This document shows positions 7,003-50,355 of a stretch of 64,000 nt of DNA, piece after piece. Origin of the DNA: a virus. Its lineage: Duplodnaviria > Heunggongvirae > Uroviricota > Caudoviricetes. Each line of letters starts with the position of its first letter. Position 1 is the stretch's first letter. Location of the stretch: IMG/VR virus record IMGVR_UViG_2861079508_000001; one strand, 5' to 3'. The notes under the pieces are model-generated. The model saw nothing but the letters and a program-made list of their open reading frames with translations, was not told the origin of the DNA and made no database searches. Position numbers and translations under genes: made by a program.

Positions 7003-7338
7003 TTAAGCCTCAAATACTTGTCTGAATGTAGCAGTTAAGACACAGTACCCCTGATATCGCTTGACCGTATGACTGTCACATACAACTACAATCTGCTTGC
7101 CTCTTGGATTAACCCAATAGAACGATTCAACGCCTGATCGCTCAGTCAGGAAGTCATCGATTGCATTAATTTCGTTGTATGATCTGGTAAAGGTTAACGA
7201 CCATTCTTCTTTAATACGATTAAGACCTTGAGCCTGTCGCTGCTCGTAGTCATCACCAAAATTAAGTACCGTTACATTCGGTTTTACGCTTTTTTCAGAT
7301 TCGTAATCTGGATACCAATTAAACGTTTGTCTTTCCAT
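7003..7338 (-). CDS. minor tail protein (lambda gpM-like)
   Basis: 111 aa ORF immediately downstream of tape measure gene; synteny. Confidence 0.6.
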   Translation of the reverse strand: MERQTFNWYPDYESEKSVKPNVTVLNFGDDYEQRQAQGLNRIKEEWSLTFTRSYNEINAIDDFLTERSGVESFYWVNPRGKQIVVVCDSHTVKRYQGYCVLTATFRQVFEA

Positions 7339-16106: not shown

Positions 16107-16923
16107 TCATACGGTTGTTGATGTAACTGACCAGCAAGCGCCAGGTACTACGAGCCACATGCACGTTTGCAGCTTTACCGGTACGGTACATGTTGGTTGT
16201 TTCACCGATGGACTCTGACAAAATGCCATCCTCTCGTGCTGCGGCTACATCATTGCCATTTGCGATCTCACACGCTTCGTTGACAACGGCAAGCATCAAC
16301 GCTTCTTTGAAGTAGTCAGGGAACTCTTCAAACTTCTCCTGCGTCATCTTTTCCCAATCGACTAAATCATGCCGGTACGCTCCATCTGCTTCCCACGGAA
16401 TGTCATACACATTCAGCATATTTTGAGGGCGATCGTATCGGTCAAAGTCGATACGTAGAATTTTGCGGATTGAGAACGGTAAAGTTTTAATTCGTCTGGT
16501 AGCCTCAATGAGACGCTTGCGCATTAAGCCTTCACCATCCGACAGCAAAGTGTCCCCATTCAGCATATCGATCGCCTGCATTTGAGCATCAGCGACAGTT
16601 GCAAACGACTGTTCTGGTATCGACAGTTCAAAACTATTCAGCAGAACATACATTTGCCGCTCTTCATGCGTCAGACCCGATGCAACAGCCTTCACAATGA
16701 CGTACCGCAGATCTCGCTCTTTCTCAGAGAGCTGGTTATATTCAGCCGACACGACAACCGGAATCGACATTTGACCGCTGGTAATTTCTAGCGGCTCGCC
16801 ATCAACGAGAATAGCCCCGGTGCTGTCCTTTACTGTGTAGGTGGCAGATTCGATATCCAGCACGTTGAAGGCAAATGAAAGAGAAACAGCTTCACCGCTA
16901 CGATACGAGTCGATCTGCGCCAT
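16090..16923 (-). CDS. hypothetical structural protein
   Basis: 277 aa ORF in structural module. Confidence 0.4.
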   Translation of the reverse strand: MAQIDSYRSGEAVSLSFAFNVLDIESATYTVKDSTGAILVDGEPLEITSGQMSIPVVVSAEYNQLSEKERDLRYVIVKAVASGLTHEERQMYVLLNSFELSIPEQSFATVADAQMQAIDMLNGDTLLSDGEGLMRKRLIEATRRIKTLPFSIRKILRIDFDRYDRPQNMLNVYDIPWEADGAYRHDLVDWEKMTQEKFEEFPDYFKEALMLAVVNEACEIANGNDVAAAREDGILSESIGETTNMYRTGKAANVHVARSTWRLLVSYINNRMIVRRA

Positions 16924-21806: not shown

Positions 21807-23063
21807 CTATCGAGAACCACCAAGAATAACACGGTTTTTGACTGGATACCTACGATGTACTGGATAGCCCAATGCGTCTGCACTATGCTCAATGCCACCT
21901 GTCTTATCCATATCTCGTGTTCCAGGCTTGTAGATGACTTTTTCCAGTGAATCAATCAAATGCTTGCACTTCGGATCGATATACAACCGGATATCTCCAG
22001 ATGCGGTCATCAGCATTCGGTTAACAGCATTAACACGATCCGCAATTGGCGGGTGCTTTTTCGAATAATCGACACGTAAGAATCCCTTCTCTTTGAATAT
22101 GTCGACGTCAGACTCCCCGCGAGCATGTTGGCGATAAGCACCTGCCGGATCTGGAAATACCGTTATCTGTGATTTCCAGCGCCAGAAGCGTCTCTCAAGC
22201 TCATCACAAACCTCTGCCGTGTTAGAGGAAAAGAGCACCAATTCATCAATTGCCCATAGCTCACCATTTGGCTGAGGTTGCAAAATTACTGAAGACATCG
22301 GGTCAATGTTGAAGTCCTGCCCTACCCATATAGGCAACCGAGGGTTGAACTGAAGCGGTTTTACATGCACGTTACGATCGAACGGGTAGTAAACGCGCCC
22401 GGACATGTTCTCAAAGCTCGCCAGGTACTCCTGAGCGAACGATTTCGGGTCCATATCGTTCTTAGCAGCTTCAATTTCCGCCGTAGGCACAAACGGAGAA
22501 TCGGCAGTTACAAACTGCCAGCTCTTCCACTGTCCCTTTCTTTGCAGCTCTACGTTCTGGCCTATAGTCCACAGTTTGTGAAATTCCGAGAAACCTTTTG
22601 GCGTACCAATGATAAGTGCACCGCCGCGTGTCGATGAAAGAGTAGGTCGTAACACCTTGTACCAGGTGTCAGCCTTCATATCCTGAAATTCATCAAGCAC
22701 TACAAAATGCAACGCTACGCCGCGCAGAGTGTCAGGCTTATCAGCACCTTTGAGGGCGATCTCCGAACCGTTCTTCAACACGATTGTCATCGTGGTGTCG
22801 TTCTTTTTCCTAACCCACTTACGAGGCAGAACTTCCTGTAGATCGTCCCACAAAATCTGGCGAGCCATCTGGTAAGTAGGAGCGACATACCAGACCCTTT
22901 GCTTTTTTTCCTTTGCCGCCGCACGAATAATAGTGGAGATCGACAACCGGGATTTTCCCCAGCGTCGACCAGCACAAACAACTTTAAATCGATGCGGAGA
23001 CTGGAAGACTTTCATCTGTCCAGAATGCAGTTGCACAAGACTGAGCGAGGACGGGATTGCCAT
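21807..23063 (-). CDS. terminase large subunit
   Basis: Walker A CAGRRWGKS and Walker B VVLDEF ATPase motifs; C-terminal nuclease-like region. Confidence 0.75.
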   Translation of the reverse strand: MAIPSSLSLVQLHSGQMKVFQSPHRFKVVCAGRRWGKSRLSISTIIRAAAKEKKQRVWYVAPTYQMARQILWDDLQEVLPRKWVRKKNDTTMTIVLKNGSEIALKGADKPDTLRGVALHFVVLDEFQDMKADTWYKVLRPTLSSTRGGALIIGTPKGFSEFHKLWTIGQNVELQRKGQWKSWQFVTADSPFVPTAEIEAAKNDMDPKSFAQEYLASFENMSGRVYYPFDRNVHVKPLQFNPRLPIWVGQDFNIDPMSSVILQPQPNGELWAIDELVLFSSNTAEVCDELERRFWRWKSQITVFPDPAGAYRQHARGESDVDIFKEKGFLRVDYSKKHPPIADRVNAVNRMLMTASGDIRLYIDPKCKHLIDSLEKVIYKPGTRDMDKTGGIEHSADALGYPVHRRYPVKNRVILGGSR

Positions 23064-23695
23064 TATTCGTCCTCCCCTTCACTTCCATCATCTGTCGCAT
23101 CAAATTCGCTTAGAGCTTCTTCTTCCAACGTCTCAAGCAATTCGTCATCGATGATTTCAGGCTCGTCGTCTTCCTGACGTAATTTCGCCACCTGGGAAGG
23201 CGTAAGCTCACCAAATACCAGGTTCGGAATTTCTTCCTCGTCATTTTCCGCATGATCCATGCCCAATGCTTTGGACGAAACTTCAAAGCATTTTGCAAGG
23301 GTATTACTGGCTCTCTGTAAGCTCTTGAGAGAATCCTCAATCGCCCCTAAAGGCTTACCCTCACGTTTGGCCGTAGTGACTTCGACCATCACCATCTGCC
23401 CCAACGCATACGCCCAGCCGTCATAACGTGTACGACGTTCTTCTATCTTTTCCGCACGGGCTTTAGCGCGAAGCTCTGCGTCAGATTTAAGAGACTCACG
23501 AACCATCTTCCCAACAGAGTCCGCGCCTTTCTCTAATCCTCGCTTTTTGAAATGTCTGGAGAGTGTTTCACGACGAATGCCGTACTCTTCCTCCAGCTTT
23601 GAGAGTGTATATTCGCCTGACGTCCATTTGGCTTCAGCTTCGGCCCACTCCGCTGGTGTCAGGCGAGTTTTTACCTCGTCTTTTTCGACCGTCAT
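23063..23695 (-). CDS. terminase small subunit (putative)
   Basis: 210 aa, N-terminal HTH-like region, acidic C-terminus, directly upstream of terminase large subunit. Confidence 0.55.
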   Translation of the reverse strand: MTVEKDEVKTRLTPAEWAEAEAKWTSGEYTLSKLEEEYGIRRETLSRHFKKRGLEKGADSVGKMVRESLKSDAELRAKARAEKIEERRTRYDGWAYALGQMVMVEVTTAKREGKPLGAIEDSLKSLQRASNTLAKCFEVSSKALGMDHAENDEEEIPNLVFGELTPSQVAKLRQEDDEPEIIDDELLETLEEEALSEFDATDDGSEGEDE

Positions 23696-23744
23696 AGATC
23701 CCTCTAAAACACACAGAGCGCGTCCATGCGCTCTAAAACAACTT

Positions 23745-23776
23745 GTTTACTGCATTTTCTAACCAACTTGTTTTCT
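23745..23776. promoter_or_regulatory. two copies of palindromic motif AACAA-N-TTGTT(TTCT)
   Basis: AAAACAACTTGTTTAC and AACCAACTTGTTTTCT upstream of terminase small subunit. Confidence 0.45.
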
Positions 23777-23790
23777 GGGTTGTTTAATTA

Positions 23791-23889
23791 GGTCTGGGCA
23801 TGTCTTATTAAGCCTGCTTCCGTATATATTTAATAAGTTACTTATTATTTATATATACAGAAGCAGGTCTTTAAATAAGCTCCCAGACC
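23791..23889. repeat. long imperfect palindrome (arms GCCTGCTTCCGTATATAT / ATATATACAGAAGCAGG), copy 1
   Basis: Inverted repeat read from sequence; near-identical arms recur at 47965-48035. Confidence 0.6.
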
Positions 23890-23891
23890 GA

Positions 23892-24158
23892 TTACATCAC
23901 CAGTAACTTCGCTTTGGCTCGACCTAAAGTGGTTAACCCAAGAGTTCGGCGGTGATAGCGATTGTCACTGCGTTGGCGCGTATGCCCTTTCTCCACAAGC
24001 CCCTTTTTTATCAGAGCGCGAATTGAGAACTGGATACTTTGCTTGGTTGTCTTGTACGGCAAAACTTCAAGCAATTCGTCCAGATCAAGTAGATAACCTC
24101 GCTCATAACCGAGATTGAGCGTTTTGATGATGTCCTTTTGTTTATCGGTTAACGTCAT
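23892..24158 (-). CDS. small basic protein, possible winged-helix DNA-binding protein
   Basis: 88 aa ORF, composition. Confidence 0.35.
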   Translation of the reverse strand: MTLTDKQKDIIKTLNLGYERGYLLDLDELLEVLPYKTTKQSIQFSIRALIKKGLVEKGHTRQRSDNRYHRRTLGLTTLGRAKAKLLVM

Positions 24159-24167
24159 GGCAAATCC

Positions 24168-25058
24168 TTATGCCGGTAAAGCAATTTCTAACGGTTTATC
24201 CAAAGGTTGTTTGTCGAATGCCAGCAGTGGCAGCGTGTCAGGCAGTCGACGACCAAAGTCAGGGTTTCGATACACCCCATACAACGGAGACGTAAAGCTC
24301 AGGTTGTGAATGTCCTTGAGCAACTTCACAATGCAGGCCTCGTCCACCAGACTGTCGGCAATGTCCTGAATCGTCGTGCCACGATTCCGCCCAGCTTTTG
24401 CCAGGGAACTGTTCTTGTGGTAGTCCGCCACCAGATCACGCAGTGCACGGCGACGACGAGACTCGCTCATTGCGAACAACTCTTTGACGATCGCCTCGTT
24501 ATCACCCGGGTCGGAACGGAAATGGCGCTGGAATACACGCAGTGCACTTTCATAGCTCTTCGGTCGCTCAGGGCGGATGAACTTAAACCCTGCTTTCATG
24601 GCGAAGGGATTGTATTTGCTCATCGAGGACTGGATCTCAATGATTGGCCGGTCATGCATCCTGCTAACCAGGTTAATCATTCGATAAGAGACGCCTACGC
24701 CACGATACTGAGTATCCACAACTGAGCGACTGATCACCGCAAAGTTGTTATTCACGTACCGACCCCAGTACTGGTTAGCCACGGTGGTATTAGTGGTTGG
24801 TTTCAACTTAGGAAACATGCGGTGGCGAGGTGCCAACAGTAGTTTCGGGTAAGCCATAACCACGACGCCCACCAGACGGTCATCAAGTTCGCAGCGATAG
24901 TAAGTTGGCGCGAAAGGTTTGCCGTCTGTTTTGTAGTGAAGCGACTTAAGAGCGTGCCAGTCCTCTACAGTTCCCTTTGTAACAGTCATTCGCTCCAGAA
25001 AGTCCAGATGACGCGGAAACTCTTCAGGGCGGTAGCGTTTAATGATGATGTCCGTCAT
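24168..25058 (-). CDS. GNAT-like acetyltransferase-fold protein with C-terminal extension
   Basis: YRGVGVSYRMI and NPFAMKAGFKFI resemble GNAT motifs A and B. Confidence 0.45.
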   Translation of the reverse strand: MTDIIIKRYRPEEFPRHLDFLERMTVTKGTVEDWHALKSLHYKTDGKPFAPTYYRCELDDRLVGVVVMAYPKLLLAPRHRMFPKLKPTTNTTVANQYWGRYVNNNFAVISRSVVDTQYRGVGVSYRMINLVSRMHDRPIIEIQSSMSKYNPFAMKAGFKFIRPERPKSYESALRVFQRHFRSDPGDNEAIVKELFAMSESRRRRALRDLVADYHKNSSLAKAGRNRGTTIQDIADSLVDEACIVKLLKDIHNLSFTSPLYGVYRNPDFGRRLPDTLPLLAFDKQPLDKPLEIALPA

Positions 25059-25720
25059 GAATGGACCTCATCGTGACTACCATTGTGATATTCCACCTTC
25101 ACGCGTTCTTTGTAGTGCTTGGTGATCTGCATATCCGGGCGCAGCGCGTTCTTCAGGTCTTCGTGAGTCGTCGCCACCATTACCGTCGCACCAACCTTTC
25201 GAGCGGCACGCTGGAGGTTAGACGCCACAACCTGAGCGGTTACACGGTCGAGAACAGCGCCGAACTCGTCAGCAGCCCACACTTTAGCGCCTGACTCAAT
25301 CAGTTTGGCAATCTTGAGACGATATTTCTGGCCGTCTGACATTTCAGAAGGCTTGCGAACAAACAGATATGCATCGTTCAGACCAGCCATAGATAACAAC
25401 CCAAGCGCATCACTGGTCGTTTTGCCCAACTGATCGATGACGTTAACCTCATTATCGAAGGTAAAATCATCGATGGAGGCTACAGACAGCCCTTCATCCT
25501 TCATCTGTCGTTGCAACTCGCGCAGCACAACGGATTTGCCGGAACCGGATTGGCCGGTGATGTACACCACATCGCCCTGCTTCACTTCCAGCTCCAGATT
25601 GTCGTAAAGCGTCCACTCTTTTTCGTCCAGGCCAAGCCCGAACGACTCAGCGATTTCCAACGTGCGCGTGGTTTTATTTACGCGTGTCTGAAACGATACG
25701 TTGATGATGTATTTGCTCAT
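25055..25720 (-). CDS. stand-alone ABC-type ATPase
   Basis: Walker A GQSGSGKS, signature MSDGQKYRL, Walker B VWAADEFG, H-loop TTHED. Confidence 0.65.
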   Translation of the reverse strand: MSKYIINVSFQTRVNKTTRTLEIAESFGLGLDEKEWTLYDNLELEVKQGDVVYITGQSGSGKSVVLRELQRQMKDEGLSVASIDDFTFDNEVNVIDQLGKTTSDALGLLSMAGLNDAYLFVRKPSEMSDGQKYRLKIAKLIESGAKVWAADEFGAVLDRVTAQVVASNLQRAARKVGATVMVATTHEDLKNALRPDMQITKHYKERVKVEYHNGSHDEVHS

Positions 25721-26385
25721 GCAGCCATCTCCCCGGAAGAGATCTTCTCCGCATATGCCACAAATGCGTCTACCCCGCTTTCTCCCGTCATTTCTTCCAT
25801 GTGGGCAAGCAAATCACCAACAACAATGGCAGAGCCAGCAGGGAGCGTTTTAAAGCCCAATACGTCGACAACACGTACTTCTTCCGCTGCAACTTCACGA
25901 CTGATCTCGGTGTGTTCATCCTTCTGTCGTTTAGTTTCTTCGCCAAGATCGATAACTAGCGAGTCGGTGTCCATTTCTTCTGTCATACTGCCAACGAGAA
26001 CATTCAACTCACGCTCTTCAAAGCCGAAAACCTCGATATCGTCCAGAACAAGCGACTCAAGCTCTTTCTGTAGCTTAATTGCATCGTAATCAATGCTGGC
26101 AAGTCGGTTATCTTCAAGGCGCTTCGCACGAACCTCGTCATCACTGAGATCATCGCGAACAATAACCGGTACGCGCTCAAGTCCAGCAAAAATTGCAGCC
26201 TCACGGCGGCCGTGGCCAGTAATAATTACGTCGTTCTTATCGACCGTAATTGGCTGGTCAAATCCGCGCTTTTTAATGGCTGCGGCTAGATCTCGGATCT
26301 GCTGTTCATCATGCTTTTTGGCATTCATCTCATAGGGAATAAGATCTGCCGGGTCGCGATATACGATTTCAAACTTTTTGGTCAT
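25717..26385 (-). CDS. ParB-like N-terminal domain protein 1
   Basis: ParB/Srx motif ITGHGRREAA; start at ATG with AAGGAG; stop overlaps next gene. Confidence 0.6.
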   Translation of the reverse strand: MTKKFEIVYRDPADLIPYEMNAKKHDEQQIRDLAAAIKKRGFDQPITVDKNDVIITGHGRREAAIFAGLERVPVIVRDDLSDDEVRAKRLEDNRLASIDYDAIKLQKELESLVLDDIEVFGFEERELNVLVGSMTEEMDTDSLVIDLGEETKRQKDEHTEISREVAAEEVRVVDVLGFKTLPAGSAIVVGDLLAHMEEMTGESGVDAFVAYAEKISSGEMAA

Positions 26386-27083
26386 TACATACGCTCCTTG
26401 TAGTAGTCGACCAGCCACACCAGAGCCTCACCAGCGTTCTCCATTTCATTACCGGTGTTAATAGCCTGCTCTTTGATGATGTTTTTTATGGTTTCTGCAA
26501 CACGATCTGACGCATCGAAAGTTACTTTGAAGCGCATGGTCTGATGTTCCGCACCCACACGTTCGGTTTTCTCTCGTTTGTCGGTATCGACAGGCTCATC
26601 ACTACCACGAGACAACGCCTCCAGTGCTTCAAGGTCGATTGCCGCCTCTTTTGCTAAAACCATCGAGATTTCGTCGTCATACGGGGCGATTTCAGACAGT
26701 TGATAGTCAAGTTCTGACTGAATTTCTTCAATGAAGCGTTGCAATGCGATTTGGTCGTCTTCACCGTATCGCTCGTTGTCCACCAGTGACATCTGTTTAG
26801 CTACGACATCGCTAATTTTGCCCACAGAAAGCACCGGAACCGTTGAAATTCCTTGCTCAATAGCAGCACGCCAGCGATGTTCGCCGCCGAGGATTTCAAA
26901 AAATCCATCTTCAAGTTCACGAGCCAAAATTGGCTTAAAAAAGCCCAATTTTTCGATAGAACCTTTCAGTTTTTCAAAATTCTGCGCACCAACCGAATTG
27001 GTGTTCCAGGTATTCGGGCGAAGGTTGGCAACATCAACCTGCAAAATCGTGATTTTTACATCCATTTTATTGCTACAATACAC
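26385..27083 (-). CDS. ParB-like N-terminal domain protein 2
   Basis: ParB/Srx motif LGGEHRWRAA. Confidence 0.6.
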   Translation of the reverse strand: MYCSNKMDVKITILQVDVANLRPNTWNTNSVGAQNFEKLKGSIEKLGFFKPILARELEDGFFEILGGEHRWRAAIEQGISTVPVLSVGKISDVVAKQMSLVDNERYGEDDQIALQRFIEEIQSELDYQLSEIAPYDDEISMVLAKEAAIDLEALEALSRGSDEPVDTDKREKTERVGAEHQTMRFKVTFDASDRVAETIKNIIKEQAINTGNEMENAGEALVWLVDYYKERM

Positions 27084-33208: not shown

Positions 33209-33625
33209 TTACCACCAGGCGCAGAAGGTCAGTCTGTTATTGTGAAAGTCGTGGTTCTTAATCAGATCTTCCACAAGCTCTTTCAACTGCCCCACATCAT
33301 GCCAGTAACCTTCGTCGTACTCCTGACTGCCGAAGAAAAAACCTTCCCGAGTAGGCAAGTACTCTTCGCAATTGCTTTCGTTTATGTGCATCAAATGAGC
33401 TTTCAGAAGACAAATGTCATTCATCGTTAATTCTAAAAGCTCACAATTTTCGACTTCACCTACGTTGCGCTCCATCCACCCAACGAGCGCATTGAACTTA
33501 CGGAAGTAAGCAACCTGCTTTCTGGATGCCTCGTTATTCAGATCGTTTTTAGGCTGTGTCTCGATATAGATATCAAGTCCCATGATGGTTTCCTTATTAA
33601 CTTGCTTCAGTAAAATCATTTTCAC
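33209..33625 (-). CDS. hypothetical protein
   Basis: 138 aa ORF; likely true start a few codons inside. Confidence 0.45.
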   Translation of the reverse strand: MKMILLKQVNKETIMGLDIYIETQPKNDLNNEASRKQVAYFRKFNALVGWMERNVGEVENCELLELTMNDICLLKAHLMHINESNCEEYLPTREGFFFGSQEYDEGYWHDVGQLKELVEDLIKNHDFHNNRLTFCAWW

Positions 33626-33666
33626 AAATCAGATAAGGCAGAAAACAAATTGTTATCTGGCTTAAT

Positions 33667-33692
33667 AAAATGGCGCGGTTTACGCGCCATTT
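33667..33692. terminator. intrinsic terminator hairpin (AATGGCGCG-GTTTA-CGCGCCATT)
   Basis: Hairpin flanked by A/T runs, immediately after a TAA at about 33701. Confidence 0.5.
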
Positions 33693-37523: not shown

Positions 37524-37528
37524 CTCCT

Positions 37529-37593
37529 AAACAATTTGTTTTCTTATATGACTTATTATCTCAATCAACAAAAGGTAGAAAACAAATTGTTTT
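37529..37593. promoter_or_regulatory. two inverted copies of AACAA-N-TTGTT motif; the second is split by the host-segment junction
   Basis: AAACAATTTGTTTTCT and AGAAAACAAATTGTTTT; the latter is completed by TTGTTTTCTAG at about 41159. Confidence 0.5.
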
Positions 37594-37633
37594 AGAGTTT
37601 GTTAAAGTCAGAAGGGGTTGTGTCTATATGAAA

Positions 37634-40968: not shown

Positions 40969-41266
40969 TAAAAAGGTGGTGCTTTTGCCGTTACGCACCA
41001 CCCCGTCAGTAGCTGAACAGGAGGGACAGCTGATAGAAACAGAAGCCACTGGAGCACCTCAAAAACACCATCATACACTAAATCAGTAAGTTGGCAGCAT
41101 CACCGAGCGCCAGCGGCGAACATATGAGCTTCGGAAATACTAGACATTCTTAACTCCGTTGTTTTCTAGTTGTGGTTATTTTCACAAATAAGAAAAGATA
41201 GAAAACAATTTATTTAAGGCCACAACTTATGGCCTTTATTTATTCATGCCGAAGGATTTGTAGCGT

Positions 41267-47138: not shown

Positions 47139-47636
47139 ATTACTTCCCAGAACAGGTTTTTATAAACCTGAACTGAACGAACGAAGTGAGTGAAGTTCAC
47201 CTCGAACGAAGTGAGAGGTTGTCTTTTCAGGTAATACTCTCCCAGGGAGGTGAGTATAAAAATCTCTCACCAACCTGGTCGTTTCATAACCTGAAAAGTT
47301 ATGGTCTAAGTCTACTGCCAGCTTAGACTTGGGAAGTTATGGATGACAGCACCCCAGAACCGAGATCTTCCCACACTTTATGAAGGGGAGTACTGGATTC
47401 AACCTCTCGAAACACCCCAGACTCGACAATCATAAAGTGACCCTTGTCTCTGCTCACTTTGGTTCCCCCTTCCCCGACACCTAAACGGCACCAGTTCTAC
47501 GCTGGTAGTGAGCTTTTTTAAACCTGACGCCAGTGACGCTTACCCCCACCCATCAGGTCGAGTCTCCAGTCTACGACTGGAAACTATCAGATCTTAGCAC
47601 TTACAATTCACTTTATGAATAGTTTGTACTTATCTA
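47139..47636. repeat. ORF-free ~500-bp region rich in hairpins and short direct repeats
   Basis: No ORF of 60 aa or more on either strand; repeats CGAACGAAGTGAG x2, AAGTTATGG x2, several inverted repeats. Confidence 0.5.
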
Positions 47637-47891
47637 TCATTGTGATTGATTATTTTCTCTACCATGTAGTTGAACATTCAAGGCAAACACCTCATTGATC
47701 AACTCACCTAAAAGCTGTTCAACAAGTTCGCGATGCTCGCCAAGATGCAAGCACTTAATTGCCCATTCGTACAAGTTGAAAGCCTGCTCACGATCTTTCA
47801 TCATTTCACGAGCCTGGGCCAGAAAATCGCTCTCTACGAGCGCAACGACATTAGTCGGGTATGACATGTTGGTTTCCTTAAAGTGGTTCAT
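47637..47891 (-). CDS. hypothetical small protein
   Basis: 84 aa ORF. Confidence 0.4.
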   Translation of the reverse strand: MNHFKETNMSYPTNVVALVESDFLAQAREMMKDREQAFNLYEWAIKCLHLGEHRELVEQLLGELINEVFALNVQLHGRENNQSQ

Positions 47892-47964
47892 AAAATCGAT
47901 TTTAAAGCGTCTGGGAAGGGGTTCTAGTGGATTCTGTTGTGATGTTCAGGTCTGGAGTCTCTGA

Positions 47965-48035
47965 TACAAAACAGCCTGCTTCCGTATATTAATAATTAAT
48001 ATGTAGTTATTTATATATACAGAAGCAGGCTAATT
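47965..48035. repeat. long imperfect palindrome, copy 2 (arms AGCCTGCTTCCGTATAT / ATATATACAGAAGCAGGCT)
   Basis: Same arms as element at 23791-23889. Confidence 0.6.
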
Positions 48036-48052
48036 ACAGACGCCAGAACAAA

Positions 48053-48646
48053 CTAAGCAGCCTTCTTTGATGGTCTTTTTTTCCTGATCACATTCGCAGG
48101 ATCATACCCTCCCAGACTTTTCATGACGTCCAAAGGGATCTTGCTTATAGAGTGCCCAGCGTCCTGACAGAATCCTCGAAAAACAACGAGCATACTGCCA
48201 CCTGGGTTGATGTTTACTTCTACCTGACCCAGATTTACGTCAGGCTCGACAAACGCTACGCGGCCACCAGACAGAATAATCGTCTCATTCGCACACTCTG
48301 TTGCACGCTCATACCACTTTGTATCTAGGGATTGAGGAATTAGCATCACTGTTGTAACTCCGCGAGCCTGCTCACGTATAGCCGCATCAATCCAGGGGTA
48401 GATTTTGGAGTAGGGTGGATTGAGGAAGGCAATTGTACCTGGCTGTCCCCATTCAGATTTCAAAGCATCACGCTCAACGCCTATGAAATTAGGCAGCTTT
48501 GCATTGTCCTTGTTGCAGGCAACGTCAACATCAAATGTCACTCCAAGATAACGTTGAATGGCAGAAAACAGCCAGTCAGGTGTTCTCCAGAGGTCACGAA
48601 GAGAGTTGTCACGCTTTCGCTGTTTGATTTTTTCGGCTGCAATCAT
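48053..48646 (-). CDS. dam: phage Dam-type N6-adenine DNA methyltransferase
   Basis: Small MTase with NPPYS catalytic motif. Confidence 0.8.
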   Translation of the reverse strand: MIAAEKIKQRKRDNSLRDLWRTPDWLFSAIQRYLGVTFDVDVACNKDNAKLPNFIGVERDALKSEWGQPGTIAFLNPPYSKIYPWIDAAIREQARGVTTVMLIPQSLDTKWYERATECANETIILSGGRVAFVEPDVNLGQVEVNINPGGSMLVVFRGFCQDAGHSISKIPLDVMKSLGGYDPANVIRKKRPSKKAA

Positions 48647-49639: not shown

Positions 49640-49797
49640 GTAAGTCTCCTTCTGTTTGGTTACATTTGCGTTTCGATGGCTGCATTTTGACTAAACCTAT
49701 CAGGCGGAAAAGTATTAAATACAGGCAGAAAATGATTGAAAGGCGACTGTTCTTTAAAAAAAAGCCTACTTTAAACTTTTTAAAGTAGGCTTTTGTT

Positions 49798-50355
49798 TTA
49801 CACAATTTCAGAGGGTAATTTAAAAAATCCGTACTTATTACGTGCCTTAAAGAAGCATTGCATCATTAAGTTTGTGTCATATAAGGCACTATGTGCTTTG
49901 GCATGATCGTATATAAAGCCAAGAGAGAAGGCCAACTCTTCAAGGCGGGGACGTTTACCGTCTTCTGTGGCCCACAATCCCGATAACATAGTATCTATAA
50001 CAGGAACTTCTGGCAGTCTTACTCCATACCCTGAAAACTCGTGTCGAATAAATGGTATATCAAATGCTTCGCCGTTATGAGCAACCCACACACTACATGC
50101 CCCCATATAAGCGCCAATTTCGCTGGCATGATTTGACAACAAAGGTTCAGCTGCGAGCTGTTCCAATGAAATGCCATGAACGGCTTGAGCTTTCGGATCT
50201 ATGTTTCTGCGAGGGTTAAAACGCATCTCCAGACTATCAATATGTCTCTGTGTCTCCAGTTCATAGCGGGTAATTGCGATTTCAATAATTTTATGACCAG
50301 CAAGGAAATCCAGTCCCGTAGACTCGATATCGATGCCTGCAACAATCGTTGTCAT
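49798..50355 (-). CDS. DEDD-family 3'-5' exonuclease (DnaQ-like)
   Basis: Exo motifs GIDIESTG, HNGEAFD, HSALYD. Confidence 0.7.
   Translation of the reverse strand: MTTIVAGIDIESTGLDFLAGHKIIEIAITRYELETQRHIDSLEMRFNPRRNIDPKAQAVHGISLEQLAAEPLLSNHASEIGAYMGACSVWVAHNGEAFDIPFIRHEFSGYGVRLPEVPVIDTMLSGLWATEDGKRPRLEELAFSLGFIYDHAKAHSALYDTNLMMQCFFKARNKYGFFKLPSEIV

Follow-up and report, generated by a model that had tools for sequence, protein, structure and literature searches.

A candidate protein-recognition palindrome repeated in three fixed slots of SSU5-type phage-plasmids

A long palindrome, with frozen arms on either side of an AT-rich centre, occurs twice in the 64,000-nt stretch of tailed-phage DNA that was analysed here (hereafter the window). 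Comparison with related genomes shows that near-identical palindromes of this kind head the three main gene blocks of the SSU5/pHCM2/pMT1-type phage-plasmids, and that hundreds of these phage-plasmids carry three copies. We consider the chances somewhat better than even that the palindrome is a double-stranded DNA site recognised by a phage protein. Its most plausible function would then be that of an origin-type melting or loading site, which we propose tentatively.

SSU5-type phage-plasmids are among the commonest phage-plasmids in clinical Enterobacteriaceae and include pHCM2 of Salmonella Typhi, pMT1 of Yersinia pestis and carriers of CTX-M-15 or KPC in E. coli and Klebsiella. The cis-acting sites for their lytic replication, for packaging and for the control of their modules are uncharted. 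An element that is precisely bounded, invariant and present in three copies provides a handle for mapping origins, termini and the binding of regulators.

Results

The palindrome and its neighbours in the window

Copy 2, as we call the copy that attracted attention here, has its core at 47973..48031. Arms of 17 nt at 47973-47989 (AGCCTGCTTCCGTATAT) and 48015-48031 (ATATACAGAAGCAGGCT) pair at 16 of 17 positions (94% complementary) and are separated by an AT-rich spacer of 25 nt at 47990-48014. Outside the core, an inverted repeat GGTCTGGAG at 47949..47957 pairs in the predicted folds with its partner GCCAGAAC at 48042..48049 (reverse complement GTTCTGGC). Copy 1 has its core at 23811..23869 with the same arms, and its outer repeats, GGTCTGGG at 23791..23798 and CTCCCAGACC at 23880..23889, likewise pair in folds. 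Neither the cores nor the outer repeats are assigned to a strand. Both strands of the palindromes fold far more stably than shuffled sequences; for RNA the energies are -27 to -34 kcal/mol (z -5 to -8.7), and for DNA z lies between -4.3 and -9.6. Nearly every gene of the window is on the minus strand.

A first-pass annotation had recognised the hairpin arms of copy 2 and had put a first copy about 24 kb away. Both observations were borne out, since the arms are located where it had placed them and the start-to-start spacing is 24,162 bp. Its description of the hairpin as upstream of the Dam methylase gene was wrong in the transcriptional sense. The gene, which encodes a Dam-type N6-adenine methyltransferase (48053..48646; Pfam Dam PF05869, E = 2.9e-38), is on the minus strand, and therefore copy 2 is downstream of it, 21 nt past its stop codon. 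The next ORF along transcription is a 76-aa ORF (phrog_5343; 47637..47867, minus strand), which begins 105 nt beyond the palindrome. The layout at copy 1 is parallel. This copy stands 22 nt past the stop codon of an 88-aa ORF (phrog_900; 23892..24158, minus strand; weak HTH-type matches), which closes a ParB_N/ABC-ATPase operon ending at the palindrome, and 115 nt before the ORF of a terS-like DNA-binding protein (phrog_867; 23063..23695, minus strand), which opens the packaging and structural block headed by copy 1. The repeat common to the two copies is confined to about 57 nt with 82% identity, and the flanks are unrelated. The arms matched the window 5 and 4 times, compared to 0.16 and 0.00 matches expected from shuffles, so that chance is no explanation for the repeated arms.

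Several features near copy 1 were recorded in passing. The minus-strand operon at 24168-27083, directly upstream of terS, comprises genes for two ParB_N-domain proteins, an ABC-type ATPase, a 296-aa protein and the 88-aa HTH-like protein; packaging, DNA modification and silencing are possible roles for it. The 88-aa, TerS-like and 76-aa proteins gave no informative match in the PDB. Just 5' of the ribosome-binding site of terS is a GC-rich hairpin, AGAGCGC…GCGCTCT, at 23714-23735 (minus strand), which covaries between lineages (ACGGCA/TGCCGT, ACGGCGC/GCGCCGT) without conservation of a T-run. The covariation indicates that this hairpin is a genuine RNA structure, and it may act on the packaging operon as an attenuator or by controlling translation. 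A length difference of 228 bp near copy 1 in the closest relative is 1.2 kb away and is unrelated to the palindrome.

Three copies in three fixed slots

Judged by its sequence, the window is an SSU5-like phage-plasmid. Both copy regions match Escherichia phages CMS-2020a and PhiR41_1 at 97.8-99.5% identity, and Salmonella phage SSU5 and Klebsiella relatives at 76-87%; the copy 2 region also matches Cyrano, at 98.4%. The complete genomes have three copies each, two of which are carried by the window. In the complete genome of PhiR41_1, the third is at 75115-75169, in a region that falls outside the window, and sits between the parA operon and an operon of a 246-aa ORF (hereafter c3R), a DnaB-type helicase and a primase. 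The distance between copies 1 and 2 (23869-47973) is 24.2 kb in the window and about 30-32 kb in CMS-2020a, Cyrano and PhiR41_1, and therefore the window is without 6-8 kb of accessory DNA there.

An exact-pattern scan of IMG/VR found at least 125 instances, and all of the matches listed occupy three syntenic slots. In class 1 the palindrome follows the 88-aa ORF and precedes terS; in class 2 it is between Dam and the 76-aa ORF; in class 3 it is between the parA region and c3R-dnaB-primase. Within one genome every copy is oriented alike relative to the genes, and the distance from the palindrome to the next ATG is 105-116 nt in all three classes, although the sequence between the dyad and the ATG has no homology among them. 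The left neighbour of class 3 varies by lineage and may be a minus-strand DUF2971-family gene, the same gene on the plus strand, or others. However, whichever left neighbour is present, the right flank and the c3R operon are constant, and class 3 is directly upstream of c3R-DnaB-primase.

The element is also restricted to one family of replicons. In E. coli there were 723 places in 245 of the 5,426 complete genomes, with a median of three per genome, and 721 of the 723 were on plasmids. Because nearly all of the places are on plasmids, the possibility raised by the first-pass annotation, that the arms belong to a common repeat family of the host, does not apply. The signature CCTGCTTCYGTATAT…ATATACRGAAGCAGG typed the SSU5-type family and gave no false hits on host chromosomes. 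A dispersed host repeat (REP/ERIC/MITE-like) was rejected on the ground of the plasmid location and because the IMG/VR matches listed are all in the three fixed slots. PLSDB contributed 2,279 places, spread over 779 plasmids at about 2.9 per record; most of these plasmids are non-mobilisable and come from Klebsiella, Escherichia, Enterobacter, Yersinia and Salmonella. The four or five places in some plasmids were not accepted as extra copies, being isolated half-site or partial matches; an Enterobacter plasmid with five has three full copies plus strays. Contigs of Y. pestis and Kluyvera bear an SSU5-type class 1 copy, and a contig search with TerS returned four close relatives only. We found no published description of the palindrome in the searchable literature on SSU5, pHCM2, pMT1 and Cyrano.

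Two observations were made on the side. In the Enterobacter phage-plasmid NZ_CP024909, a lone exact 15-nt arm (ATATACAGAAGCAGG) is located at 16764-16778 within the coding region of a CobT-like gene, a match that is unexpected by chance. An SbcC/SbcD-like (Rad50/Mre11-type) nuclease pair is encoded in PhiR41_1 (1-1917 and 106684-107769) and in NZ_CP024909 (102451-105682). Enzymes of the SbcC/SbcD type cut DNA hairpins, and here such a pair is encoded in a genome that maintains three long palindromes.

Frozen arms and the hairpin in RNA

In every copy the element is a nested dyad of about 100-105 bp, with outer inverted repeats 11-24 bp beyond the arms that pair in folds. The outer repeats follow the consensus GGTCTGG(G/A)G … C(T)CCAGA(C/A)C (GKTCTGG), which is conserved in all three classes. 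The order of parts is thus GKTCTGG, a variable spacer, an arm of 17-19 bp (RCCTGCTTCYGTATATA), a centre of 21-25 bp, and then the mirror image. The centre is 72-76% A+T, compared to 56-59% in the flanks. An AT-rich centre between inverted invariant arms, plus outer repeats, is the anatomy expected of a dyad-type origin.

By weighted conservation, no other stretch of any of the intergenic regions is as conserved as the arms CCTGCTTCYGTATAT / ATATACRGAAGCAGG, which surpass even the neighbouring coding DNA. Over 15-17 consecutive positions they are invariant across the Escherichia, Klebsiella, Salmonella, Yersinia, Kluyvera and Enterobacter lineages, whereas the spacers between arm and outer repeat are only about 50% conserved. 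The first-pass annotation had argued that a repeated, structured and non-coding element implies a function. Functional constraint is indeed strongly supported by the fixed slots, the invariant arms and the diverging flanks; the specific functions that it had offered fared worse, as described below.

The conservation is one of sequence and not of pairing. When 27 unique variants were aligned, no compensatory change was seen at any of the 14 predicted stem pairs, and the covariation term was nil. Arm position 9 switches between C and T independently on both arms (UG 9, CG 8, UA 6, CA 4), and the changes at arm position 6, to G in Klebsiella and to A in Cyrano, are uncompensated. The control was a bidirectional terminator of canonical form at 49756-49798. 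Its stem reads GCCTAC/GTAGGC, compared to GCCTGC/GCAGGC in PhiR41_1, which is a compensatory change (G-C to A-T) between genomes about 98% identical. Because this terminator covaries and the arms do not, structural hairpins drift in this genome while the arms of the palindrome stay frozen. A change on both arms (G10 to C) was seen only in a Raoultella-type lineage whose c3R is 59% identical, and it is equally expected from symmetric recognition by a protein. The Raoultella-type arm pattern had no match in IMG/VR. It was also observed that the control terminator (A-run, stem, T-run) separates a 3'-5' exonuclease gene from the next gene, and that its stem has GCCT(G/A)C in common with the base of the big palindromes.

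These results bear most directly on the possibility that the element acts as RNA. In polycistronic transcripts, a hairpin of about 60-100 nt after the last gene of an operon could be a partial terminator or insulator, a stabiliser of the 3' end, an RNase III-type processing site, or a nut/put-like antitermination signal. It is a serious rival because the copies sit just past stop codons, each beginning 0-25 nt beyond the upstream one, and because classes 2 and 3 have partial T-runs, although we regard it as distinctly doubtful. The RNA hairpins are very stable, as noted above, all copies have one orientation relative to transcription, and among the arm mismatches a sense-strand G-U wobble is the most frequent (UG 9 vs CA 4). 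T-rich sequence (TGTTTTG, CTTTTT or TCTTTT) is found 3' of classes 2 and 3, with 4-5 T in most lineages; in copy 2 it reads GTTTTGTAT. In the third slot, Morganella-type elements are a short GC hairpin with a T-run and related arms, and class 1 is about 85 nt upstream of the covarying hairpin just before terS. Intrinsic terminators and the T7-type intercistronic hairpins of RNase III are likewise stable hairpins just past a stop codon between operons.

However, unlike these known hairpins and the nearby true terminator, the palindrome has arms that are frozen without compensatory change, and in the Klebsiella lineage the sense-strand mismatches C-A, U-C and G-A are fixed. In none of the main lineages does a T-run accompany class 1. 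The base of the stem is GC-rich, but the 25 nt of AT-rich sequence between the arms far exceeds the 3-8-nt loop of a short-stem terminator, and a simple terminator scan did not call the palindrome. In the E. coli lineage, class 3 is located between divergent genes and tracks the downstream operon rather than an upstream 3' end. The outer repeats and their spacers have no obvious role in RNA, and the analogous elements of phage nickie, described below, also have no T-run. A scan of 47500-48500 with Rfam 15 gave only sub-threshold matches to miRNA-precursor-like hairpins, none at the gathering score. With neither covariation nor a consistent T-run, the terminator or processing site suggested by the first-pass annotation was not supported, and the element looks more like a docking site for a protein on DNA than like a terminator.

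Concerted evolution and recombination

The copies of a genome evolve in concert. In the E. coli lineage the 55-mers of classes 1 and 3 are identical while the centre of class 2 differs, classes 1 and 3 of SSU5 have a lineage-specific ACTAAGT in common, and in one divergent contig the variant GTATATTAAATAATAAAT is common to all three copies. Such homogenisation implies gene conversion between the copies. It could also point to a role in recombination, with the element as either a substrate of the phage-plasmid's tyrosine recombinase or a conserved "linker" of homology that promotes the exchange of modules between phage-plasmids, as the copies are at module boundaries and an integrase-family gene is present. 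We think this very improbable. No hybrid flanks, deletions or inversions between copies were seen among the 125 IMG/VR instances listed, the odd cases being truncated loci, and the recombination between copies that the first-pass annotation had envisaged thus left no recombinant junction there. Moreover, the 25-bp spacer is far from the crossover cores of 6-8 bp (or 2 bp) in lox, dif and att sites, an active site in three direct copies would delete one third of the genome, and identity to the Klebsiella and Salmonella relatives is smooth across copy 2.

Distant relatives

Pseudomonas phage nickie, with a TerS 33% and a c3R 27% identical, keeps the ParB_N genes, the ABC ATPase gene and the small ORF as an operon upstream of terS; the conservation of this arrangement was traced as far as this phage. 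Two of its slots hold AT-centred dyads that are analogous but differ in sequence, one upstream of the c3R homologue (41058-41134; 22-nt arms, 33-nt spacer) and one upstream of terS (about 7200-7265). The two have CTTTCCCT…TTAACTACT…GTTGTTA…AGGGAAG in common. In the more divergent enterobacterial lineages the left arm is decayed or everted, and the purine-rich right arm (GGGAAGCAGG) persists. No such element was seen in the Stenotrophomonas and Rhizobium relatives.

The position of class 1 and packaging

The place of class 1 beside the packaging genes raises the question of whether it is a cos or pac site cut by terminase, with classes 2 and 3 as related or alternative terminase sites. It lies 115 nt upstream of terS-terL with repeated CCCAGA motifs between, and this position and layout match those of a lambda-type cos, in which cosN has partial two-fold symmetry and stands together with the cosB repeats, upstream of the gene of the small terminase subunit. 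In addition, the linear SSU5 record starts and ends within class 1, at the junction of centre and right arm, and its joined ends restore an intact palindrome. We nevertheless consider this explanation improbable. The ends of the SSU5 record are the sole hint of cutting and may be an assembly break at the hairpin. The identical start of Cyrano is not independent evidence, because that record is the re-annotated pLF82 plasmid with a start point matching that of SSU5, and the nickie record does not start at its element. Unlike a lambda cos, the element has an AT-rich centre and three copies per genome, 24-46 kb apart, which are hard to square with unit-length packaging or a unique cos. Copy 2 is near no packaging gene, being between Dam and the 76-aa ORF and 24 kb from terS, so that adjacency to terminase holds for copy 1 only. 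TerL has a Terminase_6N domain but belongs to a distant T4/T5/Jersey-type terminase with no indication of cos packaging. It is only 25-28% identical to its counterparts in Jersey-, Kaguna- and T5-like phages, and at such a distance it is no guide to the packaging type, cos or headful.

Other candidates were tried and set aside. Rhizobium phage B1VFA, with a direct terminal repeat of 3.6 kb, is too distant to guide the packaging type, and its ends are unrelated to terS. The injection-stop repeats of T5 are a complex array of DnaA boxes and are not comparable. A protelomerase target does not fit either, since the records are circular and have no annotated protelomerase gene.

The gene blocks after the palindromes and regulation

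The same DNA-level evidence, namely invariant arms without covariation, would also fit a regulatory site. The protein that binds or loads at the three dyads may be a transcription factor of the phage or either of the conserved ParB_N proteins, whose two genes lie upstream of terS; it would thereby switch three lytic blocks on or off, as at the KorB operators of RK2 or the Sop sites of N15. Each copy is followed by a long co-directional gene block with its first ATG at 105-116 nt, and downstream of the copies there are recurrent CCCAGAC-like motifs close to a -10-like sequence, TAAAAT/TAGAAT, which is conserved. Class 1 adjoins the genes of the two ParB_N proteins, the ABC ATPase and the small HTH-like protein, all kept in nickie, and class 3 adjoins the parA operon. 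ParB-family proteins bind four SopB sites in N15 and twelve KorB operators in RK2 and affect gene expression as well; these sites, like the palindromes, are scattered, and one is near the par operon.

On balance we hold a regulatory or ParB-type role to be unlikely. In known parS and KorB sites the palindrome is contiguous and 13-16 bp long, whereas here arms of 17 bp are split by 25 bp of AT-rich DNA and accompanied by outer repeats. The sequence from dyad to ATG is not homologous among the classes, and no sigma-70 promoter was called beside copies 1 or 2 on the gene strand. The analogues in nickie also argue against a purely plasmid-partition role, provided that nickie is not a plasmid prophage itself. 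Besides, the main operator set would seem to be a separate family of 13-bp palindromes, AAACAAnTTGTTT, with at least 13 sites a short way upstream of genes.

This second family deserves a description of its own. In the window, AAACAAnTTGTTT is found at 23736-23748, and also at 33618-33669, 37524-37606 and 41149-41229; the sites in PhiR41_1 include 5682, 15899, 16628, 30177, 30228, 32939, 45701, 73104, 76038 and 102328. They are intergenic and precede many start codons, among them those of terS, parA and dnaB, by 30-50 nt. AAACAAnTTGTTT has the look of an operator or promoter element that serves a global regulator at dispersed sites, much as the C1 operators are scattered over P1.

Discussion

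The frozen arms, the absence of covariation, the nested repeats around an AT-rich centre, the three fixed slots, the concerted evolution and the analogues in nickie favour a site that works as DNA. Action on DNA, binding of a protein and origin function are all inferred. Among the DNA-level readings we rank an origin-type site first because it is the best match to the anatomy. The palindrome would act as double-stranded DNA. A phage-encoded protein would bind both invariant arms and the outer repeats, thus bracketing a centre that is easily melted and prone to form a cruciform. The arm centres are 42 bp apart, about four helical turns, and the arms are therefore on the same face of the helix. 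The duplex would then open, and the phage's own DnaB-type helicase and primase would load for lytic replication, with the copies spaced about a third of the genome apart. In its transcribed form the hairpin may also, as a side effect, reduce read-through from the Dam operon.

The consensus sequences of DnaA boxes and IHF sites are absent at all three copies, and in one complete genome the cumulative GC skew rose monotonically with gene orientation, gave no origin signal and was uninformative. The 246-aa c3R protein had no recognisable fold.

A bolder version of the origin-type reading, which we regard as speculative and quite unlikely, would make the palindromes a type of lytic origin or loading site that has not been described before in tailed phages, symmetric about a dyad and present several times per genome. 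The design would be conserved among the SSU5/pHCM2/pMT1 phage-plasmids of enterobacteria and as far as the nickie-like phages of Pseudomonas. Replication would begin at three regularly spaced points, where a protein of the phage opens the AT-rich centre or extrudes it, and at the terS-proximal copy it might be coupled to packaging.

The closest parallels in anatomy are among the dyad-symmetric viral origins. These are palindromes of 45-144 bp, capable of forming hairpins and intergenic beside replication genes, and HSV-1 has three copies of them. In oriS and oriL of HSV-1, in the core origins of SV40 and papillomavirus and in the archaeal ORB-DUE-ORB arrangement, an AT-rich centre is likewise located between inverted sequence-specific boxes. 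However, two of the three copies in the phage-plasmids are not beside replication-initiation genes. We know of no bacteriophage or plasmid origin of the HSV-like dyad type, and if the sites are origins, they would be the first such origins described in a bacteriophage. The recurrence of the site has its own parallel among phages. In SPP1 (oriL/oriR) and P4 (ori/crr), origin-binding sites recur tens of kilobases apart, one of them in the late-gene region. The palindrome resembles these origins in being a candidate site repeated at a distance and differs from them in its form, for theirs are direct repeats (iterons) beside an AT-rich tract and not a long palindrome.
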